Origin: a virus
Lineage: Duplodnaviria; Caudoviricetes
IMG/VR virus record: IMGVR_UViG_3300034357_000180
Coordinates: 1 to 31,108 of that record
Length of the DNA stretch: 31,108 nt
Strand: one strand, 5' to 3'
The notes below the pieces were generated by a model. It was given only the letters and a program-made list of their open reading frames with translations. It had not been told where the DNA came from and did not search any database. This document shows, in pieces, positions 12,962 to 29,740 of the stretch. The number at the start of each line of letters is the position of its first letter. Position 1 is the stretch's first letter. The translations under genes and the position numbers were made by a program.

Positions 12962-12974
12962 TGTTTACGTTCCT

Positions 12975-13421
12975 TTATAAAAGGCGGGTAGAAACGGTTA
13001 CGACAACTTCCGCGAAACCGGTAGGTCCTTCGGGAAACATTGCCGAGGTCTGCCGTTCTTCGGTTACTTCTGCGGAAAGAACGCCGTTGAGATCAGCTAG
13101 GGAAGTGTCATCGGCTAGCGTGTCTTCAATCGTTGCGACGATTTGCGTTAACCGGTGCATAGTTTCGGTGAGTGTCCCGTAACCGATTACGCGTATTTGA
13201 AACGGTAGGTTAAAAATGTCGTCGCGTTGTTTACGGCCGCCGGTCATTACCGGAATATTTACGGTGCCGTCGATTTCGTCTAGCCAAATAAGTTCGGCTT
13301 GCGGTACCCGGTCGCCGGGCCAGCCCGGTTCTATACTCACGTTTGCTAGTAGCGGCTCTGCACGTAGTAGAGAAACTACGCGTTCGGCGGCTTGCCAGCG
13401 AATAGACGTAGTAGCGGTCAC
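12975..13421 (-). CDS. Tail terminator-like protein
   Basis: Size, position before the major tail gene, alpha/beta pattern with IEDTLADDTSL. Confidence 0.65.
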   Translation of the reverse strand: MTATTSIRWQAAERVVSLLRAEPLLANVSIEPGWPGDRVPQAELIWLDEIDGTVNIPVMTGGRKQRDDIFNLPFQIRVIGYGTLTETMHRLTQIVATIEDTLADDTSLADLNGVLSAEVTEERQTSAMFPEGPTGFAEVVVTVSTRLL

Positions 13422-14226: not shown

Positions 14227-14255
14227 AAGAGAAAGTTTCCTTTATAGGTGGTGGC

Positions 14256-14299
14256 GGTTTACGCCGGTTCGGGAAGGGGATACCGAACCGACGTAAACC
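14256..14299 (-). terminator. 17-bp hairpin downstream of the major capsid gene (terminator or mRNA stabiliser)
   Basis: GGUUUACGUCGGUUCGG/CCGAACCGGCGUAAACC with one G-U pair on the minus strand; no U-tract. Confidence 0.55.
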
Positions 14300-14320
14300 A
14301 AACCAAACGGCGAAGCTATA

Positions 14321-15520: not shown

Positions 15521-15616
15521 AGTGGAGTCCTTTCCTTAGTTGGATTTTTATAGGGGTAGCAAGTGAAGAACCGCGGTGGTGCGCATAGCGTCCGGGCGCG
15601 GTTTTCGGGTCGCTGG

Positions 15617-19497: not shown

Positions 19498-19915
19498 GCG
19501 CCCGGCGTAACTGCTCGAGCTTAGTAGCCGATTTCACTTCGGCCAGTCCGAGACGCGACCGGCCCGAAGGATCAAAACCAAGCGTCCCCATTTGCGAAAG
19601 TATTTGCTTATCTAAATCGCGTAAAGCCTTACGCGCTTCGGCCGATTGAGTAGCCATAACCACGGTGCGCAAACTTGCGCGCTCTTCCATTGACTCGCGC
19701 AACATTGCGCAAGCGAGAGTATCGGTCTGAGCTAGCCAAATTTGCCCGGCACTTAGCACGTAATCCAACGCGCTAACCGGATCTAGCTCTACTGGTTCCG
19801 GCATGATGGCGGGAACCGCGGCAAGGTTAGACAAATTAGGAACCCGGTCGCCGCGTGCAGTCCCGCGGCGTTTCTTAACTTCGGTCGGCGTAGGCGGTCT
19901 GCCTCTCGGTGCCAT
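19484..19915 (-). CDS. terS: Terminase small subunit (P27-like)
   Basis: GRPPTPTEVKKRRGT N-terminus and LGFDPSGRSRL C-terminus; adjacent to terL. Confidence 0.9.
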   Translation of the reverse strand: MAPRGRPPTPTEVKKRRGTARGDRVPNLSNLAAVPAIMPEPVELDPVSALDYVLSAGQIWLAQTDTLACAMLRESMEERASLRTVVMATQSAEARKALRDLDKQILSQMGTLGFDPSGRSRLGLAEVKSATKLEQLRRARGEG

Positions 19916-27817: not shown

Positions 27818-28089
27818 TCGGTACGCTCCCGCTGCCAGTTGTGGCTCTCTTCCATTATGCGCGATCGTTCCTCTAAAGCCCGGTAACGGCGTTCGCGAGC
27901 CTGTTCGCGTTTCGTTTCTGAACGATCATGCAGAATTAGCAGACCGATACCGACCGTAAAAGTTATTAGCGTAAACAACGCTGAGACGATCGTCCCGGCC
28001 GCTATAGAAGTTTCTATAAACCAGTTCAGCGTAAACAACGCGAACCCGGTAAACGCAAAACCGGCACCGTACTTCGCTGCGCTATTCAT
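27808..28089 (-). CDS. Two-TM membrane protein
   Basis: Two hydrophobic helices and a charged tail. Confidence 0.7.
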   Translation of the reverse strand: MNSAAKYGAGFAFTGFALFTLNWFIETSIAAGTIVSALFTLITFTVGIGLLILHDRSETKREQARERRYRALEERSRIMEESHNWQRERTEWN

Positions 28090-28277
28090 ACGTCACGATC
28101 ACTAAGTAGAGCGTTTAACTGGTTAACTGCGTCGCGTAACTTGTCTAGTAGTTGTTGCGGTAGTTCGGTCATTATCTTTACGCCGCCAAGATCGACTACG
28201 TAAAGATCTTCGTTATGCGGTGAGCAGTCGTAAACCGAAACCCGCTCCCGAAGCTGCCCGGTAGTTGTGTATTGCAT
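28086..28277 (-). CDS. Hypothetical protein
   Basis: AGGGG RBS; ATGA coupling to the next gene. Confidence 0.65.
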   Translation of the reverse strand: MQYTTTGQLRERVSVYDCSPHNEDLYVVDLGGVKIMTELPQQLLDKLRDAVNQLNALLSDRDV

Positions 28278-28319
28278 TTTGTCCCCTATCTGTTTGGTTA
28301 GTGGTCTACTAACGGTTAT

Positions 28320-28450
28320 GGCCCGTAGTATTCCGATAGTTGTACCGGTGACGGGTGGCGGTACCCGGAATCGCGCGCTTTCCCAAGTAACGCGACTCGC
28401 CGCTATTTATAAAGCGACCACCGATACAACTACCGCAATACTACGCGGCC
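28320..28450 (-). ncRNA. Candidate structured RNA: ~30-bp stem capped by a four-way junction
   Basis: Arms 28320-28350 and 28419-28450 enclose three abutting hairpins; five G-U pairs form only on the minus strand. Confidence 0.7.
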
Positions 28451-28453
28451 TAC

Positions 28454-28789
28454 TTACTCTCTCCGTAGTGTACGTGTCTCGAATAGGTCGGTAAATTCCG
28501 GGCGACGATTAACCAGTAGTCGGGCGTAGCGGGAAGTAAAATCGTTATCAATTCGGAACGGTTGCCCGGTCGTGGCACGTCGGTAGTTCCATCGCAGCAC
28601 CTCTATTAGATATTTAATGCCTATGCGGCCGTCGCCGTGGCGGTATTCCACGTCTGCGAGCTTCTCTAGCTCATCGGCTACCCACGGGTTTGCGTCGTGA
28701 AAGGCGCGAAACTTGTCGTCTATGGTCTCAAATTTTCCGGTAGTTGTTTGCCATGCCGGAAAGAGTGTAGGTGCTTCGTAGGTGGTCAT
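28454..28789 (-). CDS. Hypothetical phage protein (FxxFHxxNP type)
   Basis: AAGGGG RBS before MTTYEAP; FRAFHDANP...IEVLRW...FRIDNDF..RYARL....PE..DLFETR. Confidence 0.75.
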   Translation of the reverse strand: MTTYEAPTLFPAWQTTTGKFETIDDKFRAFHDANPWVADELEKLADVEYRHGDGRIGIKYLIEVLRWNYRRATTGQPFRIDNDFTSRYARLLVNRRPEFTDLFETRTLRRE

Positions 28790-28849
28790 TCGGTCCCCTT
28801 GCTTAGTGTTGGATAGTTTGCCGCGTCCGTGTGACACTCACGCGGATAG

Positions 28850-29056
28850 TTACATTTCGTCACGGCTAGTAGTGGCGCGGTAATACGTTCTAGCGCGCTG
28901 AGCCAAGACGGCACGACATAAAGAGCAGACCGGTTCACCTCTGCGGCGGTGTCGGACCGCTGCGGCGTACGTTCCGCAAGGCTGTAGCTCCCGTGGCGGT
29001 CGGCCCCGGCGGCGGTCTCGATATTCGCGGGCGCGTTGTGCATCATTCTTCGCCAT
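28850..29056 (-). CDS. Small basic Zn-binding protein, putative DNA binding
   Basis: AQRAREYRDRRR basic helix plus CGT.AA..RH.RRGE.VC..CR motif. Confidence 0.65.
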   Translation of the reverse strand: MAKNDAQRAREYRDRRRGRPPRELQPCGTYAAAVRHRRRGEPVCSLCRAVLAQRARTYYRATTSRDEM

Positions 29057-29264
29057 CGGTTAGGACCGCACCGCCTGTAGTACGGATGTAGTCGGTAAGG
29101 ATTTCGGCGTGTAGGTCTCGTATTACGGCGGCGTCTGCGGCGTACTGATCGTTATTCTCGACCGCTAAAGAATGTACGTAGCCGAGTAGGTGCGAACGGT
29201 ACTGCAATAGCGCAGCGATCAGTAGCCGCCGATCGCCTTCGGTTAGTTCAATAGCTCCGGTCAT
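29043..29264 (-). CDS. Hypothetical protein
   Basis: ATGA-coupled start MTGAIEL. Confidence 0.6.
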   Translation of the reverse strand: MTGAIELTEGDRRLLIAALLQYRSHLLGYVHSLAVENNDQYAADAAVIRDLHAEILTDYIRTTGGAVLTDGEE

Positions 29265-29631: not shown

Positions 29632-29669
29632 TGTCTCCCCTTCGGAGCTGCGGAACGCTTGCCGTCCCG

Positions 29670-29740
29670 ATATGGATATCCAATCACAAACCGTCACGGT
29701 CTGTCAAGCCTTTACTTTTCGGGCCTCTGACGTGGGGAAA
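29670..29740 (-). promoter_or_regulatory. Putative early promoter/operator
   Basis: TTGACA at 29702-29707; palindromes ACCGT-C-ACGGT (29690-29700) and TGGATATCCA (29673-29682); the -10 element is not clear. Confidence 0.5.

Follow-up and report, generated by a model that had tools for sequence, protein, structure and literature searches.

A covarying RNA structure in a narrow phage clade

The window analysed here, a linear virus record of 31,108 nucleotides that is 95% complete, carries on its minus strand (28320-28450) a real, covarying RNA structure that is not catalogued and has so far been seen only in one narrow clade of phages. Its conserved core of 131 bases is predicted to form a 30-pair stalk capped by three hairpins. 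As WhiB and Rpf-like transglycosylase genes are present in the window, the host is likely an actinobacterium, and the element would represent a covariation-supported RNA, missing from Rfam, in a phage of that bacterial group.

The original prediction was of a long stem enclosing three abutting hairpins with one unpaired junction base. This was confirmed by folding the minus strand of 28296-28450, for which the minimum free energy and centroid structures were identical (-87.1 kcal/mol, z -8.66); none of 200 shuffles was as stable. The plus strand of the same interval gave -68.5 kcal/mol (z -4.78). A tile over most of the element ranked second in a genome-wide scan (443 tiles, 12 shuffles each), and the element is the window's sole tight four-way junction on a helix of at least 12 contiguous bp. 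The stalk, made of a 32-nt 5' strand (28419-28450) and a 31-nt 3' strand (28320-28350), contains 30 pairs, two of them G-U, together with one G bulge and one G.G mismatch; the whole fold has five G-U pairs in the window. It begins 3 nt past the stop codon of the upstream gene (28454-28789, minus strand), exactly where it had been placed. Then follow, still on the minus strand, hairpins H1 (28399-28418), H2 (28368-28398) and H3 (28352-28367) and a single unpaired U at 28351, which is invariant in all 12 sequences described below. All helices abut and could fold in order as the nascent RNA emerges.

Neither the element nor six related loci matched an Rfam family at E values up to 5, in agreement with the novelty that had been claimed for it. 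No description of the element was found in the literature searched, including PMC10690425, the most extensive catalogue of candidate phage RNAs, part of which was compared.

Compensatory changes in two groups of relatives

Searches with the upstream protein retrieved 14 close loci, whose proteins are 81-100% identical. Three of them (L005, L092 and L099), on contigs that stop before or within the element, were dropped, and the element was carried, with the same stalk and junction, by all 11 remaining relatives. Including the window, the 12 sequences form a group A (the window, L001-L003 and L093-L095) and a group B (L004, L096-L098 and L100), between which identity is 57-62% at third codon positions of the upstream gene and 71-75% in the stalk arms. 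The alignment comprised nine distinct rows, L093, L095 and L097 being omitted as core duplicates. Over 40 pairs, 98.3% of the cells pair, compared with 92.6% in shuffles, none of which (0/500) was as high. Double-sided changes affect 9 of the 40 pairs, a number reached by 4 of 500 shuffles, and controls in which the pairing was slid gave 26-54% pairing with at most one double-changed pair. Between the window and L004, 9 and 10 changes occurred on the two sides, 7 of them at the same pairs (hypergeometric p 2e-4). Seven of the 26 stalk pairs are double-changed, with stalk length and mismatch position kept constant. As there are two sequence groups and nine distinct rows, most of these double changes represent one event on the branch between A and B; two further ones lie on separate branches, one distinguishing the window from the rest of group A and the other L096 from the rest of group B.

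No reading frame across the core is open in all 12 sequences, so that a conserved ORF does not explain the element. Along with the covariation and the empty Rfam search, this upholds the earlier proposal that a structured RNA is under selection. The fold prediction, the covariation, the position and the lack of a shared frame all come from sequence comparison. As to the strand, G-U occurs in six of the 40 aligned pair columns and A-C in two, favouring the minus strand as the sense strand. Selection on the transcribed strand had previously been deduced from the G-U pairs of the window; by folding energy this holds in group A, but not in the five loci of group B, where both strands fold about equally well.

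Position of the element among the early genes

All assigned genes of the window are on the minus strand. The element is intergenic and sits amid small early genes, upstream of Erf, HNH, RusA and WhiB and downstream of a conserved promoter-like cassette (29660-29707, minus strand), which lies about 1.3 kb upstream and contains TTGACA at 29707-29702 followed by a palindromic spacer. This cassette is kept 1.1-1.6 kb upstream of the element in all eight sequences examined. A consensus scan did not call this cassette, whose -10 region is poor; of terminator-like sites, the scan reported one directly ahead of the cassette (29795-29757) but none in the stretch from the cassette to the element. The cassette is likely to be the source of the element's transcript. 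L093 and L094 have two copies of it, located between variable first genes. Its palindromic spacer is intact in 7 of 10 copies, and the cassette is a possible operator and shuffling point.

The upstream gene (28454-28789, minus strand) encodes a 111-residue protein of PHROG 13625, which we treat as context rather than as a part of the element. A confident model predicts a helical fold that weakly resembles winged-helix domains, and no Pfam family was found for it. The original prediction had suggested that the RNA might be a partner of this protein. The protein belongs to a very large phage family (7140 representatives), and the element is absent from all 76 loci with distant homologs, which makes the protein a poor dedicated partner. 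Nor was the element found at three loci in bacterial genomes. Further upstream, 28850-29056 (minus strand) encodes a 68-residue protein, arginine-rich at its N-terminus and containing Cys/His residues, that is kept in close relatives; it overlaps a second ORF (28786-29046) in another frame.

On the other side, the next gene (28086-28277, with its ribosome-binding site at 28282-28287 on the minus strand) encodes 63 residues in the window and in L001, whereas the other relatives have a different gene of 139-140 residues. All 11 relatives (L001-L004, L093-L098 and L100) have 33-38 extra bases between the stalk and the ribosome-binding site, which form two short hairpins with a double change at 1 of 16 predicted pairs. 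The window lost this two-hairpin module, and the small hairpin that had been noted there (28297-28313, minus strand) does exist but arises across the deletion and is specific to this genome, all relatives differing at that place.

We considered the possibility that the conserved symmetry belongs to the DNA, as a cruciform, a single-stranded DNA signal or a recombination site between swappable early genes, palindrome correction keeping the two arms alike. The swapped next gene, the doubled cassette of L093 and L094, the presence of Erf and RusA downstream and the folding of both strands in group B would all suit such a feature, and the pattern of genes and cassettes is as in the shuffling by PeSLs of T4-type phages, as far as PMC2839356 was drawn upon. 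Yet mechanical correction would erase the six G-U columns (as against two A-C columns), the invariant U.G and the invariant G.G, all of which persist, and the fold is about half as stable when computed as DNA (-43 versus -82 kcal/mol). Moreover, the element occurs once per genome, whereas PeSLs repeat. We therefore regard a DNA-level feature as very unlikely.

A PeSL cassette, in which a terminator stem-loop is attached to a promoter and which recurs in many copies, was also assessed as a candidate identity. According to the portion of PMC2839356 compared, a PeSL resembles the element as a stem-loop bordering swappable early genes, with repeated cassettes in two of our relatives, and differs from it in that the element is single-copy and multibranched, is not joined to a promoter and has no U-tract. 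This identity was rejected on the single copy, the lack of a terminator call and the distance of 1.1-1.6 kb to the promoter-like cassette.

Conservation of the junction and exchange of loop words

In all 12 sequences the stalk consists, counted from the junction, of 17 contiguous pairs, the G.G mismatch (28436 with 28333), 9 pairs and a last segment of 3-4 pairs. The 10 nt around the mismatch (28429-28438) are invariant; the distal end is weaker in group B. The junction is conserved more strongly than the stalk, since 10 of the 14 basal hairpin pairs never vary. These include the four basal pairs of H1, one of them a U.G. The 5-bp stem of H3 is nearly invariant and its loop ends in CCGCC in all 12 sequences. 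H2 is wholly different in its distal sequence between the groups, yet its length is fixed at 31 nt in every sequence. The loop of H1 is an 8-nt YUAUAAMU in group A and a 5-nt CCGCC in group B, which therefore has a second CCGCC besides that of H3, and the tip of H2 in group B bears an 8-nt CUAUAAMY loop. Thus the YUAUAAMY loop belongs to H1 in one group and to the tip of H2 in the other. The loops appear to behave like modules in these two lineages, CCGCC and YUAUAAM being kept while the hairpin that carries them changes. The strong conservation of the junction and of the loop words indicates that the head has a role beyond closing the stalk.

The loops bear on the idea of a decoy that mimics a tRNA, a Y RNA or rRNA. 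A long stem with three hairpins is the outline of YrlA (PMC4201824, in the part compared), and the motif GNCGAAN0-1G is found in H2 of L004 and L098. This motif is, however, missing from the other 10 sequences, the loops swap between groups, no linker separates the stalk from the first hairpin, and Ro60 was not found among the ORFs scanned. The T- and D-loop consensus is absent, as the original prediction had stated, and ARAGORN called no gene in the element, in line with the Rfam result. A comparison with rRNA gave p below 0.06 in 6 of 128 tests, at scattered places, which is the chance level. With the defining features missing, a decoy of any of these kinds seems the most improbable of the roles weighed here.

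Two identities of this type were rejected. For a tRNA or tmRNA there was no ARAGORN or Rfam call, and the CC after the stalk is paired, leaving no NCCA overhang. For YrlA, which according to the portion of PMC4201824 used also has a long terminal stem and three hairpins, Y RNAs being known in phages, the element differs in having no T/D stem-loop consensus and no conserved GNCGAAN0-1G (2 of 12 sequences, inside H2). No Ro60/Rsr gene was found beside it, the flanking ORFs (63-111 aa) having no such match.

We also considered that the head acts through base pairing. The CI RNA of phage P4 is formed by stem-loops within a longer phage transcript, is probably processed out and carries short loop words. 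A processed cloverleaf of the C4/CI type, as had been proposed, would here pair its CCGCC loop with GGCGG in the same operon and so damp early expression. A GGCGG stands 19-15 nt before the start of 28850-29056 (29071-29075 in the window) in all 14 loci, and no site gives the window's H3 loop a better duplex (-17.2 kcal/mol). The C4 antisense RNA of P1 and P7 likewise has three stem-loops, with loops that pair near ribosome-binding sites; it resembles the element in its short loop words and in its several stem-loops, borne on a longer phage transcript from which they are probably excised (PMC5320573, as far as it was consulted). Against this, the GGCGG site spells two glycine codons in the gene that overlaps it, and the word is found 71 times on the minus strand, a chance-level frequency. 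Of the 7 loci tested for H3, only 2 have this site as the top duplex. Loop and site are both invariant and the flanking bases do not covary. A search for complements of the loops, suggested with the original prediction, returned none of at least 10 nt common to both groups across five genomes. The element is also longer than C4 (about 131 rather than about 77 nt in the part of PMC5320573 compared), has a 30-bp stalk and, like the six related loci, matches none of the Rfam covariance models at E up to 5. The 58 ORFs compared with PHROGs, in a record that is 95% complete, yielded neither an integrase nor a CI-type repressor. With neither an Rfam match nor a covarying target nor an integrase, an immunity RNA of this type appears unlikely.

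A putative RNase III stalk

Of the functions listed with the original prediction, an RNase III site fits best, and the element would work most like such a site, being a candidate member of that class; its location between two early genes also suits this reading. Our tentative model, possible though short of probable, is that the stalk in the early transcript is cut by host RNase III, freeing a junction head of about 100 nt. The element is likely transcribed within an early polycistronic message, which would start from the cassette at 29707. A cut by host RNase III in the 30-pair stalk, close to the invariant G.G mismatch, would divide the message between two early genes and release the four-way-junction head, about 100 nt long, as a small RNA whose loops would likely be binding sites. 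In the relatives, the two hairpins right after the stalk could protect the new 5' end. Transcription, cleavage, release and binding are steps that we infer.

According to the sections of PMC8708148 used here, E. coli RNase III needs no more than a 12-bp stem and is guided more by structure than by sequence, with no strong consensus, and the T7 pre-mRNA is matured by this enzyme at stems such as R1.1. The stalk has 17 + 9 + 3-4 pairs in all 12 sequences, corresponding to an A-form helix of at least 12 bp with room for boxes on both sides; this agreement concerns geometry only, and any long stem would pass, as there is no strong consensus. The likeness to T7 R1.1 lies in a long imperfect intergenic helix, in a phage polycistronic message, that is kept by structure. 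R1.1, as described in the same sections, is a simple 49-nt stem, whereas the element's stalk, for which cleavage is only predicted, bears a conserved four-way junction and loop words. A processing site needs no junction, so that half of the explanation is carried by conservation alone. The two downstream hairpins missing in the window and the equal folding of both strands in group B also count against the RNase III reading. The comparisons with rRNA, loop complements and duplexes identified no ligand or target of the element.

The same position and fold could serve an element that stays uncut. Antitermination elements are typically promoter-proximal; binding to RNA polymerase and suppression of termination characterise put-type antitermination RNA. 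We considered an action in cis on the nascent early transcript, by binding of polymerase or of a protein, as in put-like antitermination, in pausing or in a barrier that stabilises the message. Processive elongation would matter here, as the assigned genes lie on one strand and would be read from one upstream cassette; the abutting helices can fold in order during transcription, the junction is the most conserved part, and the arginine-rich product of 28850-29056 and the winged-helix-like protein are kept just upstream in close relatives. On the other hand, the element stands 1.1-1.6 kb from the promoter-like cassette, unlike typical antitermination elements, such a role does not require a 30-bp stalk, and a match was missing from all three records, at least 90% complete, of more distant relatives that share the capsid gene. 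We consider an uncut cis element rather unlikely, though more likely than the other rivals of the RNase III reading.

No further instance of the element turned up outside the clade. A single weak match (16.7 bits) was obtained in 25 capsid-related records, none of the three that are at least 90% complete matched, and four pattern scans, two of them of partial coverage, yielded no new member; the search model, built from nine close sequences, would miss diverged relatives. Should the element turn out to be no more than a processing or stability signal, it would add only modestly to what is known, and to date from a single narrow clade. A head that is set free and binds a protein would offer a compact route to a small RNA from an early message, and the loop swap between lineages would amount to natural mutagenesis. 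By extension, and with low expectation, phages could possess a class of small RNAs, represented by the element, that lack their own promoter and terminator and in which an RNase III stalk frees a four-way scaffold with interchangeable loop modules that titrates a host or phage RNA-binding protein in early infection.

Loop words in late-gene leaders and other observations

The leaders of two late genes also contain CCGCC and YUAUAAM, with sense and order retained, just before the ribosome-binding sites (14241-14257 and 12974-12987, minus strand); the pair was not found on the plus strand. Of 80 capsid loci, 19 keep these words, and all 19 are from close relatives. The finding is only a lead, since such leaders are generally C/A-rich.

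A long hairpin (14268-14310, minus strand; tile z -7.8) follows the major capsid gene at a position where, as judged by eye, more distant relatives carry a hairpin that differs in sequence. Roughly 30-45 nt upstream of the capsid start codon (about 15555-15570, minus strand) lies a CACCTG-like word that recurs upstream of the capsid gene in most distant relatives among those listed (L273-L330); it is a possible late-expression signal. Lastly, long inverted repeats with short tandem units around a G/C-rich core were observed in more distant relatives, among the matches listed (G013:C1 about 400-570, G015:C1 about 19570-19760 and G016:C1 about 28370-28540), and are possibly replication origins.
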